IMG/VR virus record: IMGVR_UViG_2565956719_000013 | DNA from: a virus | Taxonomy: Duplodnaviria; Heunggongvirae; Uroviricota; Caudoviricetes | Strand: one strand, 5' to 3' | Length of the DNA: 41,123 bases | Shown here: piece after piece, positions 21,642-41,123 of the stretch | Layout: each line of letters opens with the position of its first letter | Position numbering within the stretch: the stretch's first letter is position 1 | The notes under the pieces: model-generated | Database searches by the model: none | What the model saw: only the letters and a program-made list of their open reading frames with translations | Told to the model about the DNA's origin: nothing | Position numbers and translations under genes: made by a program

Positions 21642-22634
21642 TTACACCACGCGGGCTTCTGTTTCCAGAAGCGCATCAGTTTCACGGATTGGTACACCAC
21701 GGAATGAAGTCCACCACTCGCCTTCTGTCTCTTTTACGCTGATAGCCAGAGATGTTTTCTCCAGAGACTGCAGATCAAGAGCCTGGCCTACAGTGCGGTT
21801 CATGTAGAACACCGGGCGGCCCATGCCACGGTTTGGAATGCGATGCAGTGCTTTAACCATCAACTTCGCAATATTTGCGGCAGAGGATGGTTCTGAAAGA
21901 TTGCTGACATCGATGTTTGCAATGCGAACAACATAACGCCAGTCACGCAGAGCAAGTCCGTTATCCCATTTGTAATGGGTGCGATAGCCTTCGTACTTGC
22001 CGCCATTAGCATCTTCCAGTGTCACCTGGCCTTTATCTTCCATCTGGATGCCAGCCTTCTGCCCTTTCGGGAAGATGCCATGCACGGTGTTTTCGCCCCA
22101 CACCACTAACCAGATTGAGGTGTTATCTGTACCCGTGCCACCAGCATCAATGATGTTCTGAGCATTACCCGCAGACAGGCTGGAATAGCGGGAGGACAGT
22201 CCCATAAACTGCTGAGGATTAACGCTGGAATCACCATAAAACAGCGTCTGCGCCATCTGCTGATTCATCGCTTCAATAAATGCGCGGTCTTCAGAAAGGC
22301 GGAATTCGGCGGTATTGCCGTTCAGATCAGCCAGTGACTTATCGACTTCCGCATAGGTTTCCAGCATGCCAACGGAATCGGTTACCTGCACTGTGGTTGA
22401 TTTGCTTGGCTGTACGCCATAGTTCAGCAAACGCCAGGTAGCTGAAGGTAAACCAGAACGAATGGTGGTTCGGTGTCCGGTAGGAAGGTTCCCTTCGACA
22501 AAAGGCATATCCTGAAGGATCGGGTTAGTTTGACCGAGAAGCTCGATAATCTTATCGACTTTCCCGTTTGGATCGACGCGCTTACCCCAGTCAGCCAGCG
22601 TTAGCGCAGTTAAGCCTTTAACAGCCATTGTCAT
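21642..22634 (-). CDS. major capsid protein (by position and size)
   Basis: 330 aa; GAGAGGAA RBS; follows scaffold-like gene; stem-loop between it and next gene. Confidence 0.55.
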   Translation of the reverse strand: MTMAVKGLTALTLADWGKRVDPNGKVDKIIELLGQTNPILQDMPFVEGNLPTGHRTTIRSGLPSATWRLLNYGVQPSKSTTVQVTDSVGMLETYAEVDKSLADLNGNTAEFRLSEDRAFIEAMNQQMAQTLFYGDSSVNPQQFMGLSSRYSSLSAGNAQNIIDAGGTGTDNTSIWLVVWGENTVHGIFPKGQKAGIQMEDKGQVTLEDANGGKYEGYRTHYKWDNGLALRDWRYVVRIANIDVSNLSEPSSAANIAKLMVKALHRIPNRGMGRPVFYMNRTVGQALDLQSLEKTSLAISVKETEGEWWTSFRGVPIRETDALLETEARVV

Positions 22635-23340: not shown

Positions 23341-23637
23341 TCACTCCTGTTCACTGGCCTCTTTGGCCATCTTCAAATACTGTTCAGGGCAATGCGCCAT
23401 AACGCGCTGAAACAGTTCAAGCGCCAGATTGCGTTGCCCCTCATTAAATGCCATTGCCATAGCGTCCATCGGTGAGATAGCGGAAAACACACGGCCTTTC
23501 TCCAGCACAGACCAGACAACGCGACGCCCCTGTTCACTGCTCATGACAAAGCGAATGTCATCAATTTCACGCTGCTCCATGTCACGTTGCTTACGGGCGT
23601 TTTCTTCTTTCAGTTGATCGTCTTCGTAATCTGTCAT
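23341..23637 (-). CDS. hypothetical protein
   Basis: 98 aa; ATGA overlap with portal stop. Confidence 0.45.
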   Translation of the reverse strand: MTDYEDDQLKEENARKQRDMEQREIDDIRFVMSSEQGRRVVWSVLEKGRVFSAISPMDAMAMAFNEGQRNLALELFQRVMAHCPEQYLKMAKEASEQE

Positions 23638-25313
23638 TGTGATTGCCCACCCTGACCACTAACTGCATTCGCCATAGCTGACAAAACACTCGGATCCGAA
23701 GTTTTAGCTTCGCTTAGCGTCTTGGCGCCCTGTGCCGCCGCCATCCCCATCGCCATCATTTGTTGCTGCTGTTGCTGCTGTGCCCGTTGCTGGCGAGCCT
23801 GCTCAACCTGTTCCTGCGGAACAATGACGGTTGGAGACACTCCGGACATATCAGCGAATGCATCGATCGCCTGATCAACGTTGAGTTTGTCGAGAGCTTC
23901 TGGTTTCGCTTGCGCAAGTTGACCAATGAAGTTAACCGTGGACGCCAGACTGGACAGGCCGATAGACTTCTGCGCCTGAGCCATGACGGAAATGTATTCG
24001 ACCTTCAGGGGCATACCTTCCATCACGTCTGGCGGTGGCGGCAGCATGTTTTTACGCACCATCATCGAGAAAGAGCGGTCAATGAGAGGATTAAGACATT
24101 CGTCGTTCAGACGCTCCAGAACCGGCCCCAACATCAGAAGTTTTTCTTCTTTCATTTCGATCACCGCTTCAACAGGCATCGAGCGGGTATTGATGTTCTG
24201 CAACATCATGAACAGATCGACAAAGTAGGCGCTGTTAATGATTTGACGAGTGTCCTGAATGTCTGCCACCAAATCTGCTGTACTGGGGTTAACCAGATAA
24301 GCAGGCCTGAAACCATCCTGACCAGTAATCTGATCGATATACGTGATGTCGCCAGGAAGAAGGGAGGCACGCTGATTCTTGAGGGAAGTCGGAGCAACCA
24401 TCGGCGGATTGGTGGCTTTATCAATCAACTGCGACTTGCGCTTCTGGAGAAGCTGCAATGCCTTAACAGGTCCAAGCGCCAGCATACCCGGGCATGATGA
24501 TCCATAAACATCTTCGCCGTTAACTTCCCAGCGCGGAGCCATAATTGGAAACTCATCGAATCCGGACTCACGCAACAACTTGTCGTTATCGCCACCAACC
24601 TCGTAATAAACCGATTTGAATGGCTTGTTCTTGCTATCCAGCTTCGATGTATCGCGGTCAATGTTCGGGTAAACCGAATGCATCACTTCAATCCACTTCT
24701 CGTAGGTTCCGCTTTCCCACATGCTTTTTACGGATTCGCTGACGTTATTTAGCCCGAACTCCTGAACAAGCTGACGAACAGTCATAGAGAACTTGCGAAA
24801 ACAGGTGTCCACACTGCCACGAGGTGAGTTAGCCAGGTAGTAACTGCCTATCGGGAATGGCATTGTGCGAATGATGTCCTCGTCATCCTCCAGCACTGCC
24901 ATTGCACCAGTGCTGTATGTGCCGAGGCTTCCGTATAACTGCGGCAGCGACTGATAGAGATTCGACTTATTGAACATATCGTTCATGCGGTTCTGCACCG
25001 CCTCAAGCCACAACTTAACAGGGCCATAATCCATCATTTCAGGATCTGGCGTAGCCAGGCGAAACCACGGACGCGCGGGGCTTGTGATGCCTGACATCAT
25101 GCCGCTGGCGAGAGTGCGCGCCGCCATAGTCCCGGTCGAATCAATAATGCGTGTATTGCGTCGATCGTTACGGTTGGCCTCAGAAGTCAGAAAGCGGGAA
25201 CCACGCGGGTTGATGTAATCACTCAACTCGCGCCAGTGCGGCTCGAACGACTGACGCTCGCTTTCAAGTTGTGCGAACTGTTTGTTCAATCGCTCTTTAG
25301 TTGTTTCCGCCAT
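23634..25313 (-). CDS. portal (head-tail connector), T7 gp8-like
   Basis: 559 aa; GGAG RBS; C-terminal QQQQQMMAMGMAAAQGAKT resembles T7 gp8 C-terminus; follows terminase. Confidence 0.8.
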   Translation of the reverse strand: MAETTKERLNKQFAQLESERQSFEPHWRELSDYINPRGSRFLTSEANRNDRRNTRIIDSTGTMAARTLASGMMSGITSPARPWFRLATPDPEMMDYGPVKLWLEAVQNRMNDMFNKSNLYQSLPQLYGSLGTYSTGAMAVLEDDEDIIRTMPFPIGSYYLANSPRGSVDTCFRKFSMTVRQLVQEFGLNNVSESVKSMWESGTYEKWIEVMHSVYPNIDRDTSKLDSKNKPFKSVYYEVGGDNDKLLRESGFDEFPIMAPRWEVNGEDVYGSSCPGMLALGPVKALQLLQKRKSQLIDKATNPPMVAPTSLKNQRASLLPGDITYIDQITGQDGFRPAYLVNPSTADLVADIQDTRQIINSAYFVDLFMMLQNINTRSMPVEAVIEMKEEKLLMLGPVLERLNDECLNPLIDRSFSMMVRKNMLPPPPDVMEGMPLKVEYISVMAQAQKSIGLSSLASTVNFIGQLAQAKPEALDKLNVDQAIDAFADMSGVSPTVIVPQEQVEQARQQRAQQQQQQQMMAMGMAAAQGAKTLSEAKTSDPSVLSAMANAVSGQGGQSQ

Positions 25314-26703: not shown

Positions 26704-28179
26704 TTAAGCATAGGGATCGTAATCTGTAATGGCCCTTCCCTGCTGGCTTTGCTGTCCTGGTATATTTATGCGTTTCGAGACCGGGAAAGCAAACGTCAGC
26801 AGTAGCGCATCGCCTTTACCCGGCGAACGCCCAAGCCGCTCCTTGATATCTTCCTTCGGTTCGATAACGATTTTACCGTCCACTCGAACTTTGTACTCTG
26901 CCGCCGACAGGTCGTCCGCTGTTTCCTGGTCATCCAGCATGCCGCCCAGCCTCAGCCATGTCTTGCATGAGTTGAACATCTCCCCACGCTTGTTGAGCAT
27001 CTGCGGGTCAGTAGACGCGCCACCGAACGGAACAAGTTGCCATGTACGACCCCAGCCGTCACCGATTGACTTCAAACCGGTTCCGTAACCGAAGTCGATG
27101 AACACCGCGTCAGCCTGATACTGGTCTTCAAAGTCAGCGATACGCTTCGCCATAATCAGATCGTCGGTAGTCTTGTTGCCAGTCCACAGCACCTTACTGT
27201 GTAGCCCCTGCCGCAGGTATATCACCGCGTCATCAACGCCTGAATATGCCGGGTCAACACCGATTATCACCGGAGCATGTGCCACCTGCGCAGCGGTTAC
27301 CACCCGTTTCATTGCCTCGTCAGTAAGACCGGTAGGGATAAACTGCAATTCAGATGCATCAGGGAATATGCCACGCACACGGATTTTAACGAAGTCGCTA
27401 TCTTCCCCGTAGTCATCAACCCATTTCTGCAACTGCTGTTTGTTGGTGCCTTCCACCGTCCTGCTGTCAATCTGCGCAGTTTTCCAGCGGTGTTTGTATT
27501 TGCGGAAACATTCACGGAAACGCCCGGTGTTACGTGTAGGGTTTCCGAAAGCCACCCAGATAATCTCAGTGTCTTCGTCCGTTAGCGCACCCTCGGCAAC
27601 TTCCCACACCAGATCCGCAATGTTCGACGCTTCATCAAATACCACGATGATGCGTTTACGCTCGTTGTGTAGTCCGGCGAATGCCTCAGTGTTGTGCTCA
27701 GACCAGGGGATTGCGTCAGCTCGCCACCGCTTGTCGTGCCCAGGGTCATTGCTGTACATCGCGGTAGCGGTACAGGTAAACCAGTCTTTCGTGATAGCAA
27801 GGTTTGACCACTTGATAATTTCCGGCCAGGTCTTCGTTCGTAGCTGGTTGTCGGTGTTGGCGGTCACCACGACCTTACAATCCTCGCAAGTGGACATGCC
27901 CCAGTTGATCAGCATTGAGATGAATGCGGATTTACCAATACCGTGACCAGAAGCACGTGCCAGCATAAGCGGCTGATATCGCGTCTCTGGATTCTGCAGG
28001 TGATCACGTATCTCTCGGAACGCATCAGCCTGCCACTGACGTGGGCCGGTGGCATGTGCCAGTTCAGTCCCCTCTTCCCCCCATGGGAACGCATAGAGGG
28101 CATAGCCAAGCGGATCGTGAGTGAACCCTGCAATATCCTCGATTAACTGCTCTTCAGGAGATAACGCTGTATCTGTCAC
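26704..28179 (-). CDS. terminase large subunit
   Basis: 491 aa; Walker A-like ARASGHGIGKS and Walker B-like IIVVFDEAS; ATGA overlap with small subunit. Confidence 0.85.
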   Translation of the reverse strand: MTDTALSPEEQLIEDIAGFTHDPLGYALYAFPWGEEGTELAHATGPRQWQADAFREIRDHLQNPETRYQPLMLARASGHGIGKSAFISMLINWGMSTCEDCKVVVTANTDNQLRTKTWPEIIKWSNLAITKDWFTCTATAMYSNDPGHDKRWRADAIPWSEHNTEAFAGLHNERKRIIVVFDEASNIADLVWEVAEGALTDEDTEIIWVAFGNPTRNTGRFRECFRKYKHRWKTAQIDSRTVEGTNKQQLQKWVDDYGEDSDFVKIRVRGIFPDASELQFIPTGLTDEAMKRVVTAAQVAHAPVIIGVDPAYSGVDDAVIYLRQGLHSKVLWTGNKTTDDLIMAKRIADFEDQYQADAVFIDFGYGTGLKSIGDGWGRTWQLVPFGGASTDPQMLNKRGEMFNSCKTWLRLGGMLDDQETADDLSAAEYKVRVDGKIVIEPKEDIKERLGRSPGKGDALLLTFAFPVSKRINIPGQQSQQGRAITDYDPYA

Positions 28180-28775
28180 TGATTGCCATCCTGACGTTCT
28201 TTCAGTCTCTTCCTGGCTGCCGCTATGCGATCAGCAATTGTCACATTCACATTAACATCCAGGCGTTCTTTGAATGCGTTGACGTCGACGTGCTTACCAA
28301 TCAGTTCGAGGTTCTTCACCTTGTCAGGCCATTTAATTTTTTTGAGGATGCCAACCAGCTCTTTCTCGTCTCCACGGCCTTCGAACATGTCGGCCAGTTC
28401 GAAACCTGTCAGGTACTGCCGCCAGACCTTAGGCCATTCCGAGACCGGCTTGATGCTCATATCGTCGTTGAGAATGTCAATCACGTCCATCTGGTCGATC
28501 TCCACCAGGCGCATGAGAACGTAATCAGCACTGACGCGCATTCGTTTGTTGCGCTCCTCCATCAACTCGGCAATCCGTTTTTGAATGCGTTCATCGCGCA
28601 TCATGACACTGGCTTTAACTGCCGCTGTATTTGGGGAGAATCCTGCGTTAATCGCTGCCTGAGTCTGGTTTTCAGGCGTTTTGATGTATGACTGGCAATA
28701 AGCCTCCTGCATTGCTGTTAGTGGCTTAAATTGCGTTGATTTGCGTTTATAGGTTTTAGGTTCAGCAGGCATCAT
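28176..28775 (-). CDS. terminase small subunit
   Basis: start moved to ATGATG 28775-28770 (MMPAEPK...); immediately upstream of large terminase. Confidence 0.65.
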   Translation of the reverse strand: MMPAEPKTYKRKSTQFKPLTAMQEAYCQSYIKTPENQTQAAINAGFSPNTAAVKASVMMRDERIQKRIAELMEERNKRMRVSADYVLMRLVEIDQMDVIDILNDDMSIKPVSEWPKVWRQYLTGFELADMFEGRGDEKELVGILKKIKWPDKVKNLELIGKHVDVNAFKERLDVNVNVTIADRIAAARKRLKERQDGNQ

Positions 28776-28782
28776 AACCACC

Positions 28783-28814
28783 GTGGTAATAGTTACCGTT
28801 GTGGTAATAGTACC
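28783..28814. repeat. two direct copies of GTGGTAATAGT(T)ACC upstream of terS
   Basis: 28783-28797 and 28801-28814; each is a GGTAA-N3/4-TACC inverted arrangement. Confidence 0.8.
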
Positions 28815-28818
28815 ATGC

Positions 28819-28844
28819 AAAATAAAGCCGCCATAGTTGGCGGC
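28819..28844 (-). terminator. intrinsic terminator immediately upstream of terS
   Basis: GCCGCC (28827-28832) / GGCGGC (28839-28844), loop ATAGTT; minus-strand T-tract UUUAUUUU (28826-28819). Confidence 0.6.
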
Positions 28845-28885
28845 AGTATTCAAAACCCATCAAATTCATCATGCATAATCTACTC

Positions 28886-29506: not shown

Positions 29507-29822
29507 GACCTTCCTCCTTTGGCTTGTGAATTTGTATCGTCATGCCGCTTTGAGTGGTGACTACAACGACAGAACCAGGCTGAAGACTGTTAAGATTGAA
29601 TGCTTCGTAAAACGAAGCCAAGGCCAGCGCTTTTTTATTCTTTCGGTTCCACCAACGCCATCCATTGCTACAGGCTACACTGACAATCCACTGCCCACTC
29701 CTGTAAGCCATATAAAACCAGATGAGCAAAACCTGAATGAATGCTATCCAGTCAATAATCGTATATTTCGCGAAGGAGTCCATCACTTCACCTCCTGTCG
29801 TATATTTCGCGAAGGAGTCCAT
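29499..29822 (-). CDS. small membrane protein; N-terminus spans a 39-bp tandem duplication
   Basis: ATG 29822 overlaps DUF551 stop (TGATG); identical RBS+ATG recurs 39 bp downstream at 29783; one TM helix. Confidence 0.45.
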   Translation of the reverse strand: MDSFAKYTTGGEVMDSFAKYTIIDWIAFIQVLLIWFYMAYRSGQWIVSVACSNGWRWWNRKNKKALALASFYEAFNLNSLQPGSVVVVTTQSGMTIQIHKPKEEGRG

Positions 29823-29836
29823 CACTTCACCTCCTG
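29759..29836. repeat. perfect 39-bp tandem duplication (2 copies)
   Basis: TCGTATATTTCGCGAAGGAGTCCATCACTTCACCTCCTG at 29759-29797 and 29798-29836. Confidence 0.9.
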
Positions 29837-30580
29837 CGGCGGTTCTGGTAGCGGCATCCAGAACAAGGCGTTCCCTAACCACGATAAAGTGCCGTCGCTC
29901 AACTCCACGTATTCCCCTTGTACCTGTCCTGCCATATACTCGCCGTGCTTTGAATAAATTAAAATCCAATCATCTTGAGGGGGCATTCGCTCACTACAGC
30001 TTATCCAACCATCCGGAGTTACCGGAGAGTTGCCAGCCAGTCTACGCAAAACAGCCTTAACAGCCTCAATACGGTCATCATCGCAATTTTCCAGCGTATC
30101 TATGCGGTCGAGCATGATGATGGCGTTATCAATATCAGGATTGCCAGTCCACTCATTACCGCGATTGGATTCGGCAGCCTGGTTGCCAGATGCTGGCTGA
30201 TTGTCGGCTTGGCTATAGCTAACAGCACGGCAGGCATCCTCTACGCCTTTAACTGCATCTGCACAGTAGTTATAGCGATTGCATTCCACTAACTTCTGCT
30301 TGAGATTTTCAATTGCTTGCGCGACATCAGCCTGTATTACGGGAACGGGGGGAGCGGCGTATACTTCAATTGTCCCATTATCAATAGGCCACTCTCCATC
30401 CTTGATGTAGTCACTTGTACCGTCAACTTGCTGTTCTGCAATGTGGAATGCACCTATTGGTTTTGTCTCAAGCGATGCCAGTGCAATTCGTGCCACTTCC
30501 ATTTGTTCGCCACGGGTAAGCCCGTTATCAAGCGGATTTTTAATGAATAATTCGATACGTTCTTTGGTAATAGTGGTCAT
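29822..30580 (-). CDS. DUF551-domain protein
   Basis: AAGGTGA RBS; C-terminal WISCSERMP...FWMPLPEPP matches DUF551 pattern from memory. Confidence 0.6.
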   Translation of the reverse strand: MTTITKERIELFIKNPLDNGLTRGEQMEVARIALASLETKPIGAFHIAEQQVDGTSDYIKDGEWPIDNGTIEVYAAPPVPVIQADVAQAIENLKQKLVECNRYNYCADAVKGVEDACRAVSYSQADNQPASGNQAAESNRGNEWTGNPDIDNAIIMLDRIDTLENCDDDRIEAVKAVLRRLAGNSPVTPDGWISCSERMPPQDDWILIYSKHGEYMAGQVQGEYVELSDGTLSWLGNALFWMPLPEPPQEVK

Positions 30581-30582
30581 AG

Positions 30583-30774
30583 CTATTTCACCTTAATCTC
30601 AACATTTCGCAGCTTTAGCTCTACTGGCAGGTCTGACTTTCCGGTTAATGCTAATGCGAGATTTTCTGGAGTAATGAGAGCCGTTATTGTTTTCCCCATC
30701 GCCAGACGAATAATCATTCGTATCTCGCGATCGTCACATGCTCCCGGCCGAACAATTGAGATTTGTCCGTTCAT
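30583..30774 (-). CDS. small hypothetical protein
   Basis: ATG 30774 two nt after upstream stop; 63 aa. Confidence 0.4.
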   Translation of the reverse strand: MNGQISIVRPGACDDREIRMIIRLAMGKTITALITPENLALALTGKSDLPVELKLRNVEIKVK

Positions 30775-30775
30775 C

Positions 30776-31585
30776 TCACTCTCCTTTGATGCGAATGCCA
30801 GGGGCGCGTGGCACATTAACTTCCACGATGCGCACTGTTGGTTTGTACATCTCAATCGCTGTCAGCCAGTCAGCTCCTGTCATGCGCTTTTCCACATCGC
30901 CATTAGTCCACTGAACCGGTACACCAATAGCCTTCATCGCGATTTCTATTTCCCCGGCGATGGCGCTTTTTCCGCAACCAGTAAAACCAGAAACAACGAC
31001 AAGAACTTCGCCTTTGGCTGGTTTTATTTCCCGTGCTTCCAGTTCTGCAATGCGCTTCTCTGCGGCTTCCAGCTTCTCGCGCATATCGTCAACGTACTCG
31101 ACCAGAGATCCGCCAGCAGGAATTTCGCATTCCTCGACCAGTTGGAAGTAGATATCAGCTGCGGCCCGTGTGTTGCTATGCCTAGCGTCGCCCATCTCAC
31201 CTTCACGAAGAGCATCGCGTTCGGCGGTAAGATTGGCTATTTTGCTGTCTTTGCCTTCCAGCTCAACACGCAGTTTCCCTACCGTTAGCGCAATATCCTC
31301 GTTCTCCTGATCGCGGGATTTGATGTATTGCTGGTTCCTTTCCCGTTCATCCAGCAGCGCCAAGACGGTAGCCGGATTGGCTGCGGCGATGAATTCAGCA
31401 TCACGAGATTCGTTTTCACTGAACACCATAGCTATTTGCTCATGGTTTATGCCGTCAGTGGAGTAAATCTCATCGTCGAATTCAACAGCCCACTTACCTT
31501 TCGTAGCCTTCTCCGCCGCCTCACGCAGTGCCTGATAGTCAATCTTGCTCACTGGTTGCCTCCTTTGCGAATCTGTTCCGCCCAT
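30776..31585 (-). CDS. Ead/Ea22-like protein with C-terminal P-loop-like motif
   Basis: N-terminal IDYQALREAAEKATKGKW, central coiled coil, GFTGCGKS Walker-A-like near C-terminus; start uncertain (no clear RBS, 37-nt overlap upstream). Confidence 0.45.
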   Translation of the reverse strand: MGGTDSQRRQPVSKIDYQALREAAEKATKGKWAVEFDDEIYSTDGINHEQIAMVFSENESRDAEFIAAANPATVLALLDERERNQQYIKSRDQENEDIALTVGKLRVELEGKDSKIANLTAERDALREGEMGDARHSNTRAAADIYFQLVEECEIPAGGSLVEYVDDMREKLEAAEKRIAELEAREIKPAKGEVLVVVSGFTGCGKSAIAGEIEIAMKAIGVPVQWTNGDVEKRMTGADWLTAIEMYKPTVRIVEVNVPRAPGIRIKGE

Positions 31586-32097
31586 TCTTCAAGGGATTTC
31601 TCCGCATATTCACCGGACAGGCCATCAATCGGGTGCGGTTCATTAGCCAACTCTTCTTTCGCTGACAGAATCATGCGTGTAACGTCGAAAACTTCACGTA
31701 AAGACTTATTGATAAATCCGTGGTTGAAAGCAGCAGCAAGACGGCTTGCGGTATAGTTAATCCCCTCGTTGCGAGCCTCCGCACGAATTTCAGCCAGAAA
31801 AGCATCGGTGGCTGGAGTTTCGCTGTGGTGCAGGGCATCGTTGATAATCATTGCAGCAACTCCGGCCTGCCCTGCATCCGTGACCGACACATGCTCAAGA
31901 GTTACAGCCATTGCATGTTTCAGCCCAGCATTCTCCGCCGCCAGCGCATTAGCACGCACCAGTTGCACTTCCAGTTGCGTTGCCAAATCGCTGATCAGCT
32001 TTGCCACACTGCGCATATCAACGGCACCACATTCTGCTTTCAGTTCCGAAGCCATCTCATGCCCGGCGGCAACTAACCCTTTGATATTACTTTCCAT
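31549..32097 (-). CDS. hypothetical protein
   Basis: GAGGGT RBS; 182 aa, Ala-rich helical. Confidence 0.5.
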   Translation of the reverse strand: MESNIKGLVAAGHEMASELKAECGAVDMRSVAKLISDLATQLEVQLVRANALAAENAGLKHAMAVTLEHVSVTDAGQAGVAAMIINDALHHSETPATDAFLAEIRAEARNEGINYTASRLAAAFNHGFINKSLREVFDVTRMILSAKEELANEPHPIDGLSGEYAEKSLEEWAEQIRKGGNQ

Positions 32098-32620: not shown

Positions 32621-33421
32621 TTACTTGATAAATCCTGCCGCCTTTCCCCGCCTGTACTCCTCCATCAGCCACTGCGCCGGTGTTATTCCACCAAGGGTGG
32701 CGGCGTTAGGCATGCACCCGAAACTTCGCCCTGGTGGATGGTAAACGTCTCTCCCTGTGTCCGGAGGTGTACTCATGGGCTCTGGCTTTGCCTGTATGCT
32801 GATCACCGGATCGGGTATCTGCTGTCCCGAAGCCACCTTTTTCGCCCAATCATCGAGCAGCCTGCGCGCGTGTTTCTCAACCTCAATCTCGCTAAGCTGG
32901 CGCTGATACATTGCACGGCGGGTATCACATACGACCCAGTACATAACCGGATGCCGCCACGGGAATCTTTCGGGACCACCAGGATATAAACTTTTTTCCT
33001 TGCTGTACCGGTGAAACTCCGCCATCACATCGTCAATGGTGACGCCAAGAACCATCTTGCTGTCTTTGCACCACTTGATAAATTGCCCTGGAGACGGCCA
33101 GAACGGAGATTCACTGGCGCGGGCGTGGCGCATACCAGCAGAAACCTGTTCACGGGTTCGGATCCCCCCTTCGGCAAACGCAGCAATCCACTGCTGTTTT
33201 GCAGCAACTTCCTGCTCTGGCGTCTTCAGGTTGGTTACCACTGCCGCCGGAAACAGTTGTTTCAGCTGTTTAAAAAGGGCATCAACAAGCCTCTCTGCTG
33301 ACATGTTCACCACATTGTCATTGTTGACGTACTGATGCTCATAACCTGACATGCGAGAAAGGGCTTCTCCGTCACGGTTTTGTATCGCGGTAAAAACGTT
33401 GTTCACAAGAAATCCTCCCAT
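32621..33421 (-). CDS. replication protein P-like (helicase loader)
   Basis: QEVAAKQQWIAAFAEGGIRTREQVSAGMRHARASESPFWPSPGQFIKWCKD closely parallels lambda P as recalled; true start may be an internal ATG (33352). Confidence 0.7.
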   Translation of the reverse strand: MGGFLVNNVFTAIQNRDGEALSRMSGYEHQYVNNDNVVNMSAERLVDALFKQLKQLFPAAVVTNLKTPEQEVAAKQQWIAAFAEGGIRTREQVSAGMRHARASESPFWPSPGQFIKWCKDSKMVLGVTIDDVMAEFHRYSKEKSLYPGGPERFPWRHPVMYWVVCDTRRAMYQRQLSEIEVEKHARRLLDDWAKKVASGQQIPDPVISIQAKPEPMSTPPDTGRDVYHPPGRSFGCMPNAATLGGITPAQWLMEEYRRGKAAGFIK

Positions 33422-34218
33422 GCTTCAGGGCTGTTCCAGTGCGGAACGTTGTTATCAGGTAATGTTGATTGCTTCTGTCTGCTAATCTGCAGCCGCCTTG
33501 CCAGCTTCTGCTCCCACTGTGCCTGATGGTATGCCTTACCCTCAGCCATCCAGTAAATTCTGAACTCTGCAAGTTCCTGTGCCGTTGGCAGACTGTCCAG
33601 GTAGATCCCCTGCAATGAGCTTTTCCGAAGAAAGTCATCTGATGGCTGCCATTGTTCATGCATGACAAATTTGCCTAATTGCCCTGGCCCACCAGGAGGA
33701 ACAAAGTTATTCATCACGGCGTTGTTTGCGCCGGGGTCATGAGGCACAGAATCCCCGCTTTTTGTCCTGCTCTCCCTCTCTTGGTTAAATGACTGGTTAT
33801 ATGACTGGTTCTGGATCCCGTTTTTGGGATCATTCAACATCCCGTTTTTGGGATCATTCAACATCCCGTTTTTGGGTATATTCCCATTTTCGGTAACATT
33901 ACCGTTTTCGGGTTCATTACCCCCTTCCCGGTTGCCTTTAATGTTCCCGTTTTTGGTTATATTAAGAGAGAAAACCCGCACTCTTTTCGTCGCTCCCTTT
34001 CTCTCTCCGGTATCTGAAATAAGCCCCATTTTCATGAGCGATATAAGCCCGGCCTGCACGGTTTTTTTATTCAGGCAAGTGTCTTTAACGAGGCGTTCTA
34101 TGCTGGGGTAGCAGAGGTTATATTCATCGGCTCTGTCAGCCATCGAGAGCAGTATGAGCTTTAATGACGAGCTACCTGGATCTGTCTCCCAGGCCCAATC
34201 TGTTGCATGTCTGCTCAT
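33403..34218 (-). CDS. replication initiator, O-like, with origin iterons inside the gene
   Basis: GGAGAT RBS; N-terminal HTH-like region; central NG(N/M)-repeat peptide encoded by DNA iterons. Confidence 0.6.
   Translation of the reverse strand: MSRHATDWAWETDPGSSSLKLILLSMADRADEYNLCYPSIERLVKDTCLNKKTVQAGLISLMKMGLISDTGERKGATKRVRVFSLNITKNGNIKGNREGGNEPENGNVTENGNIPKNGMLNDPKNGMLNDPKNGIQNQSYNQSFNQERESRTKSGDSVPHDPGANNAVMNNFVPPGGPGQLGKFVMHEQWQPSDDFLRKSSLQGIYLDSLPTAQELAEFRIYWMAEGKAYHQAQWEQKLARRLQISRQKQSTLPDNNVPHWNSPEAWEDFL
33815..33959. repeat. origin-like iteron array
   Basis: ATCCCGTTTTTGGGAT at 33815, 33839, 33863 (24-bp spacing) plus degenerate copies at 33881, ~33899, 33944; adjacent ATGACTGGTT x2 at 33789-33810. 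Confidence 0.6.
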
Positions 34219-35862: not shown

Positions 35863-36162
35863 ATGAACGTTAATCAGCAGAAAAATCTTCAAAAAATCAT
35901 GCTGGCATTCGACAAGGACTACCGCCTGTCAGAACAGCTATATGACCGACAAGTTGAACTGATCGAGAGCATCCGGCTTCATCAACTGGCCTCAACTTTT
36001 GACGCTGTAACAGGCAAAGGAGTTCGCCATGAAGTGCTGGAGGCAGCTAAAGACAGCCCTGAGTTCGAAGAACTTATGGATGCCTACCGGCGCGAGGCAA
36101 TGGCAATTATCGCCCGCTGGGATCTGGCGGATCAGCTTGATGGACAGAGGGACGCGGCATGA
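35863..36162 (+). CDS. hypothetical protein
   Basis: start moved to ATG 35863 (GGGAGGG RBS); ATGA overlap with nuclease gene. Confidence 0.5.
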   Translation: MNVNQQKNLQKIMLAFDKDYRLSEQLYDRQVELIESIRLHQLASTFDAVTGKGVRHEVLEAAKDSPEFEELMDAYRREAMAIIARWDLADQLDGQRDAA

Positions 36163-36980
36163 AACCGGGAATTTATTTCGACATCAGCAACGAAGACTAC
36201 CACGCCGGTGACGGCGTGAGTAAGTCGCAACTGGACATGGTTGCCAAGAATCCGGCGCTTCTTAAATGGGTTCAGGCAGCACCAGAAGACGAAGAGAAAA
36301 AGTCTGCACTGGATATGGGAACCGCATTGCACTGTCTGCTTCTGGAGCCTGGAGAGTTCGACAAACGCTTCATTGTTTCACCGAAATTCGATCGTCGGAC
36401 GAAACAAGGTAAAGCTGACGAAGAGGCATTTCTTCGTGATATTGCGGATATGGGGATTTCGGTACTTGATGCAGAGCAGTGGCGGAAACTGGAGCTGATG
36501 CGTGATAGCGCAATGGCTCACCCGGCGGCACGCTGGATGCTGGAAGCACCTGGTTACTGCGAAGCATCAATGTACTGGAACGATGAAGATACTGGTGAGT
36601 TGTGCCGCATTCGTCCAGACAAATGGCTGAACGAGCACAACGTGATCGTCGACGTGAAAAAGGTTGCAGATATGGACCGTTTTGCACGCCACATCGAGGA
36701 ATTCCGCTACCACGTGCAGGACGCAATGTACCGCGAAGGCGCAATGAGGGTTACTGGTCAGCCGCATGGTTTTTTCTTTCTTGCCGTGAGCGAAAGCATT
36801 GATTGTGGTCGATATCCGGTACGCGTGTTCGAGCTGGATGCGCCGGATGTCGATGCCGGGCACGCTCTGTTCCGCCGGGATCTGAATACCTATCACGAAT
36901 GCCGCATCAACGATGAGTGGGGCGGAGTGGAAATTATTAAACGCCCTGACTGGGCACGTAAACAGGATATGTACGTATGA
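36159..36980 (+). CDS. PD-(D/E)xK-type exonuclease (RecE C-terminal-domain-like)
   Basis: 273 aa; N-terminal GIYFDISNEDYHAGDGVSKSQL recalled for this family; coupled to annealase gene. Confidence 0.55.
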   Translation: MKPGIYFDISNEDYHAGDGVSKSQLDMVAKNPALLKWVQAAPEDEEKKSALDMGTALHCLLLEPGEFDKRFIVSPKFDRRTKQGKADEEAFLRDIADMGISVLDAEQWRKLELMRDSAMAHPAARWMLEAPGYCEASMYWNDEDTGELCRIRPDKWLNEHNVIVDVKKVADMDRFARHIEEFRYHVQDAMYREGAMRVTGQPHGFFFLAVSESIDCGRYPVRVFELDAPDVDAGHALFRRDLNTYHECRINDEWGGVEIIKRPDWARKQDMYV

Positions 36981-37858
36981 GCAATGATATCGCAATCACA
37001 TCACAACCAGGCGCAACTGTAGGTACTGCTGCGGCAATCTTCAGCCCGGAGGGCATGAATCAACTGGTGCGTTTCGCGGAGTTGATGTCACAAAGCAAAG
37101 CGACTGTACCGAAACATCTTGAAGGCAAACCTGCCGATTGTCTGGCGGTGACCATGCAGGCGGCACAGTGGGGAATGAACCCTTTCGCCGTGGCGCAGAA
37201 AACGCATGTGGTAAACGGAACGTTAGGCTACGAAGCACAGTTGGTAAACGCGGTCGTATCCTCTTCCAGCCTGCTGGCGACACGCCTTAATTATCGCTGG
37301 AGCGGTGACTGGTCGAATGTTAACGGCAAAACAGATAAATCACCGAATCTGACGGTAACTGTGTCAGCAGTTCTTAAAGGTGAAACAGAACCCCGTGAGC
37401 TTACCATCAGTATGGCGCAAGCCGGAGTGCGTAACTCTCCATTGTGGGAACAGGATCCGCGCCAGCAGCTTGCCTATCTTTGCACGAAACGATGGGCTCG
37501 CCTGCACGCTCCTGATGTGCTTCTCGGTGTTTACACCCCTGACGAATTACAGGAAACGGCACCGCGCGTTGAGCGAGACATTACTCCGCAAACAACTACT
37601 GCTGCGGGAATGAACAGTCTGATCAACGCTAAACCAGTGAAAAAGCCTGATGAGCAAACTCGTAAAGCGGATAGCCGTGATCCAGAAGAAATGCTGATGG
37701 CCTTTACCAGCGCAGCGATGAATTACAGCACTGTCTCCGAACTGGATAAGGCTTACAAATACATTGCACAAAAACTTTCAGATGATGACGAACTGCTGGC
37801 AAAAGCCACCGACGTTTACAGCGTTCGTCGGGAAGAATTAAACGAAACATCTATGTAA
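36977..37858 (+). CDS. single-strand annealing protein, Bet/RecT family
   Basis: 293 aa; ERDITP and NPFAVAQ segments parallel lambda Bet as recalled. Confidence 0.6.
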   Translation: MSNDIAITSQPGATVGTAAAIFSPEGMNQLVRFAELMSQSKATVPKHLEGKPADCLAVTMQAAQWGMNPFAVAQKTHVVNGTLGYEAQLVNAVVSSSSLLATRLNYRWSGDWSNVNGKTDKSPNLTVTVSAVLKGETEPRELTISMAQAGVRNSPLWEQDPRQQLAYLCTKRWARLHAPDVLLGVYTPDELQETAPRVERDITPQTTTAAGMNSLINAKPVKKPDEQTRKADSRDPEEMLMAFTSAAMNYSTVSELDKAYKYIAQKLSDDDELLAKATDVYSVRREELNETSM

Positions 37859-38265: not shown

Positions 38266-38565
38266 GTGAGAAAGTTAAGCCGACTTGAAAAATATAACAT
38301 GAACAAGGTTTCAATGCGCAGCCATTCAAAGATTGTCGCCGTTACTCCTGCGGCGATAGAGATCGAAAAACGCGCGATTGAAAGAGAGAAAAAAGGGCAG
38401 TTCCGCATTGCCGCTCACCTTTGGCTTCAGTGTATGGATGTTGCTTCTGGTGATGTTGAGCGTGCAAGGATCGCGGTTCGCAGGGACCAATGTATCACAA
38501 AAGGTAACGGCCTTCGCCGTGGAGACTATAGCGGTATAGGATGTTGCGGGGTGGTTTATGACTAA
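38266..38565 (+). CDS. small hypothetical protein, possible regulator
   Basis: GTG start with GAGAGGG RBS or internal ATG 38314; start uncertain. Confidence 0.35.
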   Translation: MRKLSRLEKYNMNKVSMRSHSKIVAVTPAAIEIEKRAIEREKKGQFRIAAHLWLQCMDVASGDVERARIAVRRDQCITKGNGLRRGDYSGIGCCGVVYD

Positions 38566-39208
38566 GAAATACACACTAATCTATGCAGATCCACCCTGGG
38601 TATACCGGGACAAAGCCGCAGATGGTAATCGCGGTGCCGGTTTTAAATATCCGGTTATGAGTGTGCTGGATATCTGCCGCCTTCCTGTGTGGGATTTGGC
38701 CGATGAAAACTGTCTGTTGGCCATGTGGTGGGTGCCAACACAACCACTCGAAGCACTAAAAGTTGTTGAAGCCTGGGGATTCCGTCTGATGACGATGAAG
38801 GGCTTCACGTGGATAAAATGTGGTAGTCGACAACCAGATAAACTGGTTATGGGTATGGGACACATGACTCGCGCCAATAGTGAAGATTGCCTGTTTGCGG
38901 TAAAGGGAAAACTACCTACGCGCATTAATGCAGGGATCGTTCAGTCATTTACCGCACCGCGGCTTGAGCATTCAAGAAAACCAGATATCGTTCGTGAAAA
39001 ACTTGTGCAATTGTTAGGCGATGTTTCTCGCATTGAACTGTTCGCCCGCCAGACGTCTCATGGCTTTGATGTTTGGGGTAATCAGTGCGAAGACCCGGCA
39101 GTGCAACTACATCCTGGATACGCGTTGGATATTGGCGGATTAACAAATGCATTCAGCAATGCTCCGCTGTCACCAACAGACAACCAGGGGCGGGAGCGTG
39201 CAGCATGA
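38558..39208 (+). CDS. MT-A70-family DNA N6-adenine methyltransferase
   Basis: 216 aa; IYADPPWVY (DPPW) motif near N-terminus; no adjacent restriction gene. Confidence 0.8.
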
Positions 39209-39864
39209 ACCTATATCAACGCATCAATGGCGCTGACTGGTGCAATATCTTCGTCGTCGGCGATCTGCATGGGTGCTACACACTGCTGATGAACGAACTC
39301 GACAAAGTTTCATTCGACCCGGCGCGCGATTTGCTTATTTCCGTTGGTGACCTTGTTGACCGCGGCGCTGAAAACGTCGAATGCCTGGATTTGATTACTA
39401 TGCCGTGGTTCCGAGCTGTTCGTGGCAACCATGAGCAGATGATGCTGGATGCACTGGTCAACGGCGGAAGTTTCGGACATTGGATGTCAAACGGCGGTGG
39501 ATGGTGGCACCAACTTGATTCTGAGCAGGATGTGCAACTCAAATACCTTCTGCCAAAGGTTACCAACCTCCCGATGATTATCGAACTGGTTACCGGCAAT
39601 AAGAAGGTCGTCATCTGCCACGCAGACTACCCGCACAACGAATACGCATTCGATAAGCCAGTACCGGAAGAAATGGTGATATGGAATCGTGAGCGGGTTA
39701 GCGACGCGCAGGACGGTATTGTCTCGGAGATAACCGGTGCCGATTTGTTCATCTTCGGTCATACGCCAGCACATCACCCACTGGTGTATGCAAACCAAAT
39801 GTACATCGACACCGGCGCAGTGTTCTGCGGAAATCTGACGCTTACCAAAGTCCAGGAAGGATAG
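39205..39864 (+). CDS. Ser/Thr protein phosphatase (metallophosphoesterase)
   Basis: GDLHG, GDLVDRG and GNHE motifs; ATGA overlap with methyltransferase stop. Confidence 0.85.
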
Positions 39865-39866
39865 AA

Positions 39867-41123
39867 TTATTTATTACTGTCTTCCATCCACCTCTCAAAC
39901 TTCGACGGGGAGAACGGAATCAGATCTGTATGCTCCCCGTTAATCCAGGAATCAATCATATCGGCCCACTGCTGCAACATGTAGGCGCGCTGTCTGGCGT
40001 ATTCCGCTTTGTTATATACGGCGCGCACACCTTTCTGCTCATGTGCCAGAGCCTTTTCAATCCAGTCTGAAGGATAACCAGCCTCATGCAACAACGTACT
40101 GGCTGTACGGCGCATATCGTGTACGGTGAAGCCCTGAATATGCTCACCATCTTCATTTATTATTTTCACCGTTCTGTCGATCAGAGAGTTCAGCGCGGCA
40201 TTAGATAATGGCTTCCGGAAATTGTAACGACCAGGAACCAGATATTCACTTCCACCAGCGCACATCTGCAACCCGACCAATATATCCTGAGCCTGTTTAG
40301 GCAGGTAAATAACATGCGCCCGGCTTCCCTTCATGCGGTCTGAAGGAATTGTCCATGTCCATTTTTTAAAATCTATTTCATCCCACGTTGCATTGGTGAA
40401 TTCGCCCTTACGAACCATAGTGATAAGCACCAGTTTTAAAGCCATTTTCATAGTGCCCATAGCACCAATGGCATCCAGCGTGCGGAAGAACAGGCCAATT
40501 TCTTCTGGTGTCAGTGTTCGCTCTCGTGGTTTAAATATGGCGATAGACGAAGGTTTAATGTCAGCCGCAGGATTAAACAAACCATGACCACGGTCATTGG
40601 CGTGACGGTATACGCTGCTGATGATCTCCCTGGCCTGTACTGCTGTTGCCCGACCACCGCGTTCGACAATCCGGTCACACAAATCACGAACCATCGATGT
40701 GGTAATTTCAGCCATCATTTTGTTACCAAGAACAGGAAGTATGTCACGGTCGATCACCGCCTGCTTCATTGCGCGGGTACTGTCAGCCAGGATGACGTGT
40801 TTCATATAACTGTCGGTATGTACCGCAAACGTCTCGGCACCACGAATCTTTTTGATACCGTCACGTTTAGCCGCAGCCGGTGACTGGCCTGCTTTAAGCA
40901 GCTTCTTTGCAGCAATCAGTTCTTCTCGCGCTTCTGCCAGGCTGATACCGTCACGCCCATACTGCCCGATTACCAGTGTTTCGCGGCGACCGTTGATACG
41001 GTAGTCATAGCGAAACGAGACCGTGCCTGACGTAAGCACAGCTACATACAGCCCGTCACGATCGGAGACCTTGTACAGTTTGTCCTGCGGCTTGAGGTTT
41101 TTTAATTTTGTATCGGTAAGCAC
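39867..41123 (-). CDS. tyrosine integrase (P4-like family); 5' end at or just beyond window edge
   Basis: 418 aa in window; N-terminal LTDTKLKNLKP...DRDGLYVAV pattern; C-terminal catalytic region with HDMRRT and final Tyr-containing segment; first in-window codon is GTG. Confidence 0.85.
   Translation of the reverse strand: MLTDTKLKNLKPQDKLYKVSDRDGLYVAVLTSGTVSFRYDYRINGRRETLVIGQYGRDGISLAEAREELIAAKKLLKAGQSPAAAKRDGIKKIRGAETFAVHTDSYMKHVILADSTRAMKQAVIDRDILPVLGNKMMAEITTSMVRDLCDRIVERGGRATAVQAREIISSVYRHANDRGHGLFNPAADIKPSSIAIFKPRERTLTPEEIGLFFRTLDAIGAMGTMKMALKLVLITMVRKGEFTNATWDEIDFKKWTWTIPSDRMKGSRAHVIYLPKQAQDILVGLQMCAGGSEYLVPGRYNFRKPLSNAALNSLIDRTVKIINEDGEHIQGFTVHDMRRTASTLLHEAGYPSDWIEKALAHEQKGVRAVYNKAEYARQRAYMLQQWADMIDSWINGEHTDLIPFSPSKFERWMEDSNK

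Follow-up and report, generated by a model that had tools for sequence, protein, structure and literature searches.

The window analysed here is a stretch of 41,123 nucleotides from a virus of the Caudoviricetes (IMG/VR record IMGVR_UViG_2565956719_000013), an epsilon15/phiV10-like prophage with a K1-capsule-specific tailspike. Between its replication genes and the terminase, in a region analogous to lambda nin, lies an Ead/Ea22-like gene with co-oriented neighbours on both sides (Table 1). The overlap of its start codon with the stop codon of the upstream gene is consistent with translational coupling, and the Shine–Dalgarno sequence of the phrog_1222 gene sits within its last codons. DUF551, carried by the next-but-one downstream gene, is the domain that defines the V2 variant of the Ea22 C-terminal domain (CTD; PMC10834534). 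The gene itself is ordinary: its product is already named 'ead/Ea22-like family protein' in RefSeq, and C-termini of mosaic type have been described for Ea22 before. Undocumented so far is the C-terminal domain as a unit, a widespread and sharply conserved segment of ~70 residues to which Pfam, NCBIfam and PHROG assign no function.

Table 1. The Ead/Ea22-like gene, its parts and its neighbours (coordinates of the 41,123-nucleotide window).
Feature	Position	Strand	Basis or remark
Upstream co-oriented gene, 182 aa, phrog_614 (function unknown)	31549..32097	(-)	TGA overlaps the GTG start
In-frame extension up to the ATG	31553..31585	(-)	Within the upstream gene's 3' end
Shine–Dalgarno AAGGAGG	31559..31565	(-)	6 nt 5' of the GTG start at 31552
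Ead/Ea22-like gene, 258 aa	30776..31552	(-)	GTG start; TGA stop 30776..30778; start context, translation, RefSeq identity
Ead_Ea22 (PF13935) region	31037..31549	(-)	Small N-terminal domain and long helical coiled-coil-type segment; Pfam
Long helices, presumed oligomerising coiled coil	31034..31375	(-)	Single-sequence AF2
Linker AREIKPAK, 8 residues, scaffold to C-terminal domain	31013..31036	(-)	Homology to other copies begins next, at G-E-V
Mini-P-loop domain, 70 aa, GEVLVVVSGFTGCGKSAIAGEIEIAMKAIGVPVQWTNGDVEKRMTGADWLTAIEMYKPTVRIVEVNVPRA	30803..31012	(-)	Homologues including stand-alone ones; AF2 helices
Walker A GFTGCGKS	30965..30988	(-)	Residues 200-207 of the 269-aa ORF; Lys is K195 of the 258-aa protein
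EKRMTGADW (family E-K-x-x-T-x-A-D-W), between β2 and α2	30866..30892	(-)	Conservation in 53 representatives
Walker-B-like VRIVE, hydrophobic strand with an invariant Glu at its end (E244, 258-aa numbering)	30821..30835	(-)	Alignment
Downstream co-oriented gene, 63 aa, phrog_1222	30583..30774	(-)	ATG 1 nt past the Ead/Ea22-like stop
Next-but-one downstream gene	29822..30580		DUF551 at the C-terminus

The open frame runs without interruption through 30776..31585 (-) and comprises 269 aa when counted from its ATG. The initial annotation remarked on a start codon without a clear ribosome-binding site, which is true of this ATG at 31585, as no Shine–Dalgarno sequence lies 5' of it. The site is missing there because the real start is the GTG at 31552, 11 codons further 3', which has its own Shine–Dalgarno sequence and runs into the upstream ORF's stop codon as GTGA. 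Both the Pfam and the PHROG profile begin at residue 12-13 of the 269-aa numbering, that is, at the GTG residue. Further, the 258-aa form is identical to RefSeq WP_023352212.1, and a search of 15 billion proteins found the 269-aa form in no database. The ATG was rejected as start on the Shine–Dalgarno sequence, the profile starts and the RefSeq match, and the extension is probably not translated as part of the Ead/Ea22-like protein.

The N-terminal segment and coiled coil had been likened to Ead/Ea22 early proteins, and Pfam bears this out. PF13935 matches residues 13-183 of the 269-aa ORF with an E-value of 1.1e-30 and 107.4 bits against a cut-off of 27, and the alignment spans the whole profile (positions 1-139 of 139). 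For the full-length protein, AF2 run on the single sequence places helices at residues 60-119, 123-141 and 150-173 (258-aa numbering) in a model of mean pLDDT 49, with values of 73-90 for only residues ~61-110 in the central helix. Ea22 proteins are built from an N-terminal domain, a coiled coil and a variable CTD (PMC10834534), and the same three parts are present here as an N-terminal domain, central helices and an independent C-terminal domain, the last being a separate, fused module. The Ea22 proteins of lambda and P27 form tetramers (PMC10834534), and by analogy the coiled coil of the window protein may form tetramers as well. A pro-lysogenic effect has been demonstrated for lambda and Stx-phage Ea22.

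With lambda Ea22, P22 Ead and the V1-V3 variants of Stx phages the window protein shares the mosaic build, the exchangeable C-terminal domain and the early-gene location. However, its CTD is none of the four described for Ea22 (lambda CTD, V1, V2/DUF551 and V3; PMC10834534), and the gene lies in the nin-like region 3' of a P-like helicase loader, not in the exo-xis region. The lambda CTD has been solved by NMR as a dimer of β1β2α1β3β4α2 topology (PMC10834534). It is absent from the PDB sequence matches of the new domain at E<=10 (single sequence and two profiles), and Foldseek does not return it as a PDB fold match either.

The C-terminal ~70 residues are an autonomous, portable domain, an independence shown by homologues that hold this part alone. 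Its homologues number more than 800 and come from phages and prophages of alpha-, beta- and gamma-Proteobacteria; an exhaustive search with the domain gave 444 clusters at 50% identity. Many copies stand alone as proteins of 71-90 aa that start at β1 and end just past β3. Others are fused, the domain either ending proteins of 110-623 aa or occupying residues ~22-95 of proteins of 156-465 aa. The carriers include temperate and jumbo phages, and 365 of 5,426 complete E. coli genomes contain the domain. Although it is found in phrog_11761, phrog_31825, phrog_3787 and phrog_33234, all four are labelled 'unknown function' and none delimits it as a unit; in profile and sequence searches no Pfam, NCBIfam, PHROG or PDB family claims it.

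The elements of the domain are predicted to follow the order β1, Walker A loop, α1, β2, loop, α2 and β3. The string GFTGCGKS, directly preceded by the hydrophobic run VLVVV, is the sole match to G-x4-G-K-[ST] in six frames of the window; shuffling the protein 200,000 times yielded the motif in 0.6% of cases, and in 0.1% together with a preceding hydrophobic run. The Walker-A-like motif first noticed in the C-terminal ~70 residues is retained in 256 of the 262 distinct homologous domain sequences, and the observation stands. Across 53 representatives (80% identity) the G, G, K and S of the loop and the A that follows are invariant, as are two further G, an E, a W and the terminal E. The family is marked by three nearly invariant blocks, namely G..G.GKSA, a central EK..T.ADW (E 100%, K 92%, T 96%, A 96%, D 96% and W 100% in the 53) and a terminal hhhhE, and by an invariant α1 face, A-x-x-G-E-I-E-I. 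ORF127 of the jumbo phage RSL2, whose internally placed copy of the domain is 35% identical, retains Walker A and hhhhE (as IKIVE) and has lost GEIEI and EK..T.ADW. Judged by this conservation, the Walker-A-type loop is genuine and under selection.

As in P-loop NTPases, the G-x4-G-K-[ST] motif lies between a hydrophobic strand and a helix that starts at the K. Small kinases such as APS kinase (PF01583), AAA_18, gluconate kinase and CoaE share with the mini-domain a hydrophobic β1, the G-x-x-G-x-G-K-S loop, an α1 running from the Lys, a short β2 after a Gly and a later hydrophobic strand ending in an acidic residue, like Walker B. In contrast to these kinases, the mini-domain has no β4, β5, lid or base-recognition elements and nothing beyond the Walker-B-like strand. 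It is best regarded as colinear with the N-terminal half of such kinases, from β1 through the Walker B strand, and not as a member of their group.

Profile comparisons agree on where the likeness lies. Nearly all of the commonest weak matches of 52 representatives are P-loop families (AAA_18 in 33, APS_kinase in 24, AAA_16 in 24, AAA_30 in 21 and CoaE in 16), and the similarity is limited to the ~30-40 residues of β1–loop–α1–β2. Matches to Pfam P-loop families reach best E-values of 1e-4 to 0.1, all under the gathering scores; APS_kinase, for example, scores 14.2-16.2 bits against 21.1 and is aligned only at profile positions 3-40 of 152. Against NCBIfam the domain scores 12-17 bits, compared with cut-offs of 114-715, and the best E-value in a PDB profile search is 0.0074, for the loop region only. 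With hhalign, 52% identity to a bona fide kinase (L014) extends over 29 columns of the P-loop, and hhalign and HMMER alignments to P-loop proteins alike end after β2. Since the L014 alignment stops at that point, homology beyond the loop region is not demonstrated and no descent from kinases is claimed. The initial annotation had proposed a fused nucleotide-binding module. A separate module with a selected Walker A loop was indeed found, but the domain search placed it in no P-loop family above threshold, and no NTPase fold accompanied it.

An alignment-based AF2 model of the C-terminal 84 aa (pLDDT 84, pTM 0.71) contains two helices, at 21-34 and 52-62, the helix at the motif beginning exactly at the Lys of GKS, as in P-loop proteins. 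It has no DSSP β-strands and no β-sheet. Foldseek searches with this model gave best E-values of 4.3 in the PDB and 0.78 in BFVD and no NTPase match, the noise matches having TM-scores of up to 0.3 and in one case 0.49. With neither a strand nor a Foldseek match, the structure test offers no support for a P-loop sandwich. The prediction shows no nucleotide-binding fold around the motif; it models a monomer, however, where the mini-domain is probably an oligomer, and weighs little in either direction. The search for a Walker B partner had a divided outcome, as VRIVE with its invariant Glu is a candidate by sequence, but the model holds no sheet that would place it beside the P-loop.

Our preferred reading, which we rate at a probability of about 50%, is that this is a mosaic early gene joining an Ea22 scaffold to a mini-P-loop domain that would bind a phosphate-bearing ligand, probably as an oligomer. 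The first ~175 residues are the Ead/Ea22 module, made up of a small N-terminal domain and long helices; in characterised Ea22 proteins the module forms tetramers. The P-loop of the mini-domain (G-x-x-G-x-G-K-S-A) may bind nucleotide, polyphosphate or the nucleic-acid backbone, and the fold, or else the binding site, would be completed by at least two copies of the mini-domain coming together. Oligomerisation and multivalency would come from the Ea22 coiled coil, and stand-alone copies would have to self-associate. The boundaries of the domain, its autonomy, distribution and motif conservation are shown here, as is the lack of a match to a canonical NTPase fold or family; that it binds a ligand, depends on oligomerisation or has any catalytic role is what we infer. 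Overall, the mini-domain is real and conserved, sits on an oligomerising scaffold and probably binds phosphate or nucleotide, and it is not a canonical ATPase.

Comparable to the mini-domain in size and β-loop-α content are designed proteins, namely the P-loop prototypes of the Tawfik laboratory (40-110 aa; phosphate-loop protein, PDB 6c2u/6c2v) and the de novo ATPase PL2x4_2 (PDB 9jix). Designed P-loop proteins are among the best PDB profile matches of the domain (E 0.012 for 6c2u, and 0.083). Such 40-110-aa β-(P-loop)-α polypeptides function solely in oligomeric form and have NTPs, polyphosphate and ssDNA as ligands (bioRxiv 10.1101/2020.07.30.228619); we propose that the mini-domain acts in this way too. 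The prototypes are, however, laboratory constructs from consensus or ancestral inference, whereas the mini-domain is natural and strongly conserved, and it contains the GEIEI and EK..T.ADW blocks that are absent from the prototypes.

These two blocks bear on a second reading, in which the mini-domain is a protein-interaction module that docks a host or phage protein through its α1 and ADW surfaces, binds no nucleotide and keeps the P-loop-like part as a structural relic. The invariant GEIEI of α1 and the A-D-W block are atypical of NTPases and could mark a protein–protein interface. Docking of this kind is proposed for other Ea22 CTDs: that of lambda is itself thought to act via a partner in the host, and the CTDs of Ea22 proteins can be exchanged for one another and resemble effectors (PMC10834534); an AF2 model with neither a sheet nor a fold match would also fit. 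The conservation pattern points the other way. Walker A and the terminal Glu are the best-conserved parts and persist in RSL2 ORF127, where GEIEI and EK..T.ADW are lost, the pattern to be anticipated of a loop that is itself the functional site. We consider an interaction module possible but doubtful, and retain phosphate-ligand binding as the working interpretation.

The surroundings of the stand-alone copies could suggest a counter-defence role, with the mini-domain, as a small oligomeric phosphate binder, serving as a 'sponge' or decoy that sequesters nucleotide immune signals or the nucleotide substrates of host defence early in infection. These copies occur where small accessory genes of the early region line up in arrays. 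In 2 of 7 independent contexts a Tad2-like gene (PF11195) is no more than two genes away, and Lar restriction-alleviation domains either neighbour the mini-domain or are fused to it. Known sponges resemble the mini-domain in size and in its presumed oligomeric state. However, PF11195 is common in phages, 2 of 7 contexts amount to no demonstrated association and serve as a lead at most, and no conserved neighbour or partner of the stand-alone copies was found in the contexts compared. PADLOC gave no match for the domain or its stand-alone form, nor for the genes next to it, and we know of no sponge with a Walker A loop. From such sequence and context data a sponge appears quite improbable. In the full protein the sole PADLOC match was LmuB, at 9.9 bits over the coiled-coil region.

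A canonical P-loop ATPase or kinase fused to Ea22 and hydrolysing ATP alone would account for the Walker A loop, for hhhhE as candidate Walker B and for the weak APS-kinase, AAA_18 and MinD-type matches, and one source calls a relative an 'ATP-binding protein'. Yet the domain ends ~8 residues past the Walker-B-like strand, and its shortest stand-alone members have 71-72 aa in total. The P-loop core is a three-layer α/β/α structure whose sheet is mostly parallel and has at least five strands; the ~70 residues here offer at most three β-segments and cannot hold the five-stranded core on which, in every known NTPase, Walker A and Walker B are positioned. With scores that all fall under the gathering cut-offs, alignments that end after β2 and no NTPase match by Foldseek, this possibility is very unlikely. 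Chance occurrence of the string in a non-conserved tail, for which its frequency in shuffles of the window protein might leave room, is refuted because the motif is present in nearly all distinct homologues, from three proteobacterial classes, with G, G, K and S invariant.

Returning to ligand binding by the mini-P-loop domain, a bolder version of it can be formulated. The mini-domain may be the smallest natural P-loop family, a self-assembling half-NTPase (β1 to Walker B) that as an oligomer binds nucleotides, polyphosphate or nucleic acid and that phages deploy early, either by itself or carried on an oligomerising scaffold like Ea22; its task would be to sense a nucleotide or to sequester it, and that nucleotide could be an immune signal. 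This version is speculative and, from sequence considerations, unlikely to hold in full; if true, the domain would be a natural, present-day equivalent of the designed 'P-loop prototypes', from which NTPases are proposed to have descended. Regardless, a complete protein of 71-72 aa can carry a Walker A loop together with a Walker-B-like strand. If the domain binds nucleotides, one class of Ea22-type early proteins would gain a function, poorly understood phage accessory regions would gain a new small ligand-binding module, and there would be a natural case for testing whether P-loop function can reside in a fragment much below the size of every known NTPase. Should it bind none, the family would warn against reading an ATPase into a Walker A string, however invariant.

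A literature search combining Ea22 with 'P-loop' or 'Walker A' returned no description of the mini-P-loop domain. The VarioGold paper places an Ea22-like gene four genes away from a 98-aa 'AAA+-type ATPase'.

Judged from sequence, the C-terminal ~70 residues of the Ea22-like protein constitute a discrete and widespread domain family, so far unannotated, whose Walker A/B-like signature is conserved and which is also found stand-alone at 71-72 aa. This is the new element, the gene annotation and the mosaic principle of Ea22 being already known. The best-supported reading of this mini-P-loop domain is a phosphate binder displayed on the Ead/Ea22 scaffold.

The uninterrupted ORF at 30776..31585 (-) encodes 269 aa counted from its ATG, and the initial annotation was right that this codon has no ribosome-binding site. 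Eleven codons 3' of the ATG lies a GTG (31552), preceded by AAGGAGG with a spacer of 6 nt, which shares a GTGA overlap with the TGA of the preceding ORF. The Pfam and PHROG profile alignments begin exactly at the GTG-start residue, and the resulting 258-aa product exactly matches RefSeq WP_023352212.1 ('ead/Ea22-like family protein [Escherichia coli]'). A collection of 15 billion proteins contains no 269-aa form. The ATG was therefore rejected in favour of the GTG, and the correct gene coordinates are 30776..31552 (-). The gene is translationally packed between the 182-aa gene on one side and a 63-aa gene on the other, whose ATG lies 1 base after its stop. The full gene in its exact mosaic form (>=80% coverage) was found in none of 50,697 phage records and 5,426 complete E. 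coli genomes; pieces of it are present in hundreds of them. Because the upstream 182-aa protein and the Ea22-like protein match separate parts of PHROGs 250, 368 and 14548 (positions 1-64 and 66-240 of phrog_250, respectively), the two genes appear to be fused or recombined in other phages. Their GTGA junction may be a recombination joint.

The gene set of the window (replication, terminase, portal, GP7 capsid, endosialidase tailspike and integrase) identifies it as an epsilon15/phiV10-like prophage of K1-type E. coli. The Ea22-like gene and its immediate neighbours lie on the minus strand, with replication genes upstream and structural genes downstream, in a region that matches the lambda nin region by position. 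The tailspike carries the complete endosialidase set, namely End_N_terminal, End_beta_propel (E 1e-233), End_beta_barrel, End_tail_spike and the Peptidase_S74 chaperone, so the prophage should be specific for the K1 (polysialic acid) capsule. The large terminase candidate has no Pfam match at E<=1e-5 and lacks a strict G-x4-G-K-[ST] motif. Close to the integrase, the gene of an MT-A70-type methyltransferase overlaps an ORF with a calcineurin-like phosphoesterase domain, and recombination genes lie upstream of this pair.

Coordinates of the Ea22-like gene, its elements and other features of the window
Feature	Coordinates	Strand	Remarks
Integrase	39867..41123		
ORF with calcineurin-like phosphoesterase domain	39085..39864	+	
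MT-A70-type methyltransferase	38558..39208	+	
RecT	36977..37858		
DUF3799 PD-(D/E)XK gene	36159..36980		
O-like replication initiator	33403..34218		HTH_36 and DnaT domain; upstream of Ea22-like gene
Lambda-P-like helicase loader	32621..33421		PF06992, E 1.5e-56; upstream
DUF1064 resolvase-like gene			upstream
182-aa protein	31549..32097	-	upstream
AAGGAGG	31559..31565		
Ea22-like gene	30776..31552	-	258 aa
Mini-P-loop domain	30803..31012	-	C-terminal ~70 aa
GFTGCGKS (Walker A)	30965..30988		
VRIVE (Walker-B-like)	30821..30835		
Mosaic early protein, 252 aa	29822..30580	-	C-terminal DUF551, E 5e-10; two genes downstream
Small terminase	28176..28853		downstream
Large terminase candidate, 491 aa	26704..28179		
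Portal, epsilon15/phiV10-type	23634..25313		downstream
GP7 major capsid protein, epsilon15-type	21642..22634		downstream
Endosialidase tailspike, 1039 aa	3396..6515	-	downstream

The proposal that the N-terminus and coiled coil are Ead/Ea22-like is well borne out. The Pfam profile PF13935 aligns with residues 13-183 in the numbering of the 269-aa ORF (E 1.1e-30; 107 bits, cut-off 27), and single-sequence AF2, confident only at about residues 61-110, predicts long helices at 60-119, 123-141 and 150-173 (258-aa numbering). An N-terminal domain followed by long helices is the plan shared with Ea22 of lambda and Stx phages, in which a short N-terminal domain and a central coiled coil precede a C-terminal domain that is interchangeable among unrelated types (lambda, V1, V2 = DUF551, and V3), and the full-length protein is a tetramer (PMC10834534). 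The reported Ea22 phenotype is pro-lysogenic, with a presumed partner, and the published work makes no mention of a P-loop (PMC10834534, PMC7093339). DUF551, the V2 C-terminus in Stx phages, is found in the window on a separate protein; two nearly adjacent genes hence both encode modular proteins whose C-terminal domain is exchangeable.

The C-terminal module is an autonomous, portable domain. With the last 84 residues as query, an exhaustive HMMER search returned 444 clusters at 50% identity (E<=1e-3; 344 of these at E<=1e-10), and every match covered one and the same stretch of ~70 residues (query positions ~5-76). The domain is C-terminal in proteins of 110-623 aa, N-terminal (positions ~22-95) in proteins of 156-465 aa and internal in the 380-aa jumbo-phage protein RSL2 ORF127. 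A profile of distant members retrieved 834 proteins; among the best 120, most have a full length of just 71-90 aa, running from β1 to a few residues past β3. Recognisable fusion partners among 149 representative full-length proteins were Ead_Ea22 (28), Lar restriction-alleviation (2), DUF4406 (1) and zinc-ribbon-like segments, and DUF551 occurs in one more domain-bearing protein. A genome scan located the domain in gamma- (Escherichia, Serratia, Chania, Mangrovibacter), beta- (Methyloversatilis, Pandoraea, Sulfuriferula) and alpha-Proteobacteria (Methylobacterium, Mesorhizobium, Acetobacteraceae). Its coding DNA is present in 365 of 5,426 complete E. coli genomes, with 314 locations on chromosomes and 81 on plasmids. 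Among cultured phages it is rare (27 of 50,697 records for each of two query sequences) and always labelled 'hypothetical' or 'Ea22'.

The Walker-A-like motif pointed out in the initial annotation, GFTGCGKS, directly follows the hydrophobic run VLVVV and is kept in 256 of 262 distinct domain sequences; of the other six, five are near-identical sequences with one residue changed and one is a truncated fragment. Conservation was assessed on 53 representatives (<=80% identity), with a second, MAFFT alignment of 52 sequences. The 53 give the consensus e..vtvsGpvG.GKSAi.GEIEIa..AiGvpvr..d...EKnmThADW...lemY.P.Vv.vE, in which the first two Gly, the K, the S and the following A of the Walker A region are invariant, as are the α1 Gly, the Gly after α1, the first Glu of EK, the Trp and the final Glu. 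The third Walker A Gly is conserved at 98%, the E-I-E-I residues of the GEIEI block at 91-98%, and T, A and D of the T-x-A-D-W block at 96% each. For the Walker B partner a candidate was found in VRIVE, a putative hydrophobic strand ending in the invariant Glu. RSL2 ORF127, the most divergent copy (35-40% identity), keeps G-R-T-G-R-G-K-S-A and I-K-I-V-E, with GEIEI and EK..T.ADW replaced by other sequence. This internal copy from a Ralstonia jumbo phage (L022 1994..3136, phrog_31825) reads GRTGRGKSALAG ... IKIVEKN between unrelated flanks. Its presence shows that strictly lytic phages use the domain as well.

The idea of a fused nucleotide-binding module is partly supported: the sequence signature and element order favour it, whereas no family match and no P-loop sandwich in the AF2 model were obtained. 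The domain search yielded weak matches to P-loop families, none above threshold, covering just β1–loop–α1–β2. Pfam APS_kinase reached E 0.011-0.044 (14-16 bits, cut-off 21.1). For the NCBIfam models of APS kinase, MinD, Mrp and gluconokinase the scores were 12-17 bits, where the cut-offs lie at 114-715. PDB sequence matches at E 0.007-2 were ArsA, FtsY, SRP54, UvrA, gluconate kinase and the SUR2B NBD. No family exceeded gathering for the 52 representatives, and nearly all of the most frequent sub-threshold ones are P-loop families (AAA_18 33, APS_kinase 24, ATPase_2 24, AAA_16 24, AAA_30 21, CoaE 16). In sequence signature and order of elements the domain corresponds to the N-terminal half of a small P-loop kinase, but it is too short for the five-stranded core. 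Aligned by hhalign with a genuine P-loop kinase, it matches over 29 columns at 52% identity, where the alignment ends. That kinase, C-terminal in a 519-aa protein of a Dehalococcoidales MAG (L014 2987..4543), was picked up by the genome scan; its Walker A region, SGLTGCGKSAVAGEL, is strikingly phage-domain-like over 29 residues and not further, which could reflect convergence or hint at a kinase lineage as the source of the mini-domain.

Structure prediction gave the nucleotide-binding fold no positive support. The AF2 domain model, built on a 43-sequence alignment (pLDDT 84, pTM 0.71), contains helices at 21-34, beginning with the GKS Lys, and 52-62, but zero DSSP strands, and Foldseek found no match for it, the best E-values being 4.3 (PDB) and 0.78 (BFVD). 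The lack of a sheet in a confident monomer model, despite three very hydrophobic extended segments, suggests that the sheet may form between subunits. On the preferred reading, the scaffold would oligomerise, as is known for its relatives, and present several mini-P-loop domains; the Walker A loop would bind a phosphate-bearing ligand, Ser, Thr and Glu possibly coordinating Mg, and the mini-domain would have to self-associate before its fold or site is complete. In functional terms this proposal comes closest to designed P-loop prototypes of 40-110 aa, whose binding of NTPs, polyphosphate and ssDNA requires oligomerisation (bioRxiv 10.1101/2020.07.30.228619); the top PDB profile matches include prototype 6c2u and the de novo ATPase 9jix.

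Among the alternatives, a protein-interaction module in which the P-loop is a relic is rather unlikely, though the likeliest of these. That the domain acts as a nucleotide sponge or decoy is improbable, and a canonical ATPase is harder still to credit. A chance motif can practically be dismissed, given its retention in 256 of 262 distinct domain sequences. GFTGCGKS is the sole match to G-x4-G-K-[ST] in six frames of the 41-kb window, and shuffles of the Ea22-like protein produce the motif in 0.6% of cases, or 0.1% with a hydrophobic run before it. For the phage early-gene field, the domain family is a useful, unsurprising addition; for P-loop evolution, a natural 72-aa Walker A/B protein might be notable, but only if it does bind.

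In all seven independent contigs, the stand-alone gene sits in a phage early region, amid runs of small genes of unknown function. Among the genes around it are integrases, CI-type repressors, RecT/DUF3799 recombination genes, DNA polymerase, primase-helicase, Lar, Nmad5 and dUTPase, and no conserved neighbour was found. Neither the domain, its stand-alone form nor any neighbouring gene had a PADLOC match; for the full Ea22-like protein the sole match was LmuB (9.9 bits), over the coiled-coil region. Two of the seven contexts have a Tad2-like gene (PF11195) no more than two genes away from the stand-alone gene; the other five lack one. These two cases, in unrelated phage contigs (L015 6652..6864 and L020 4507..4722), are a lead only.
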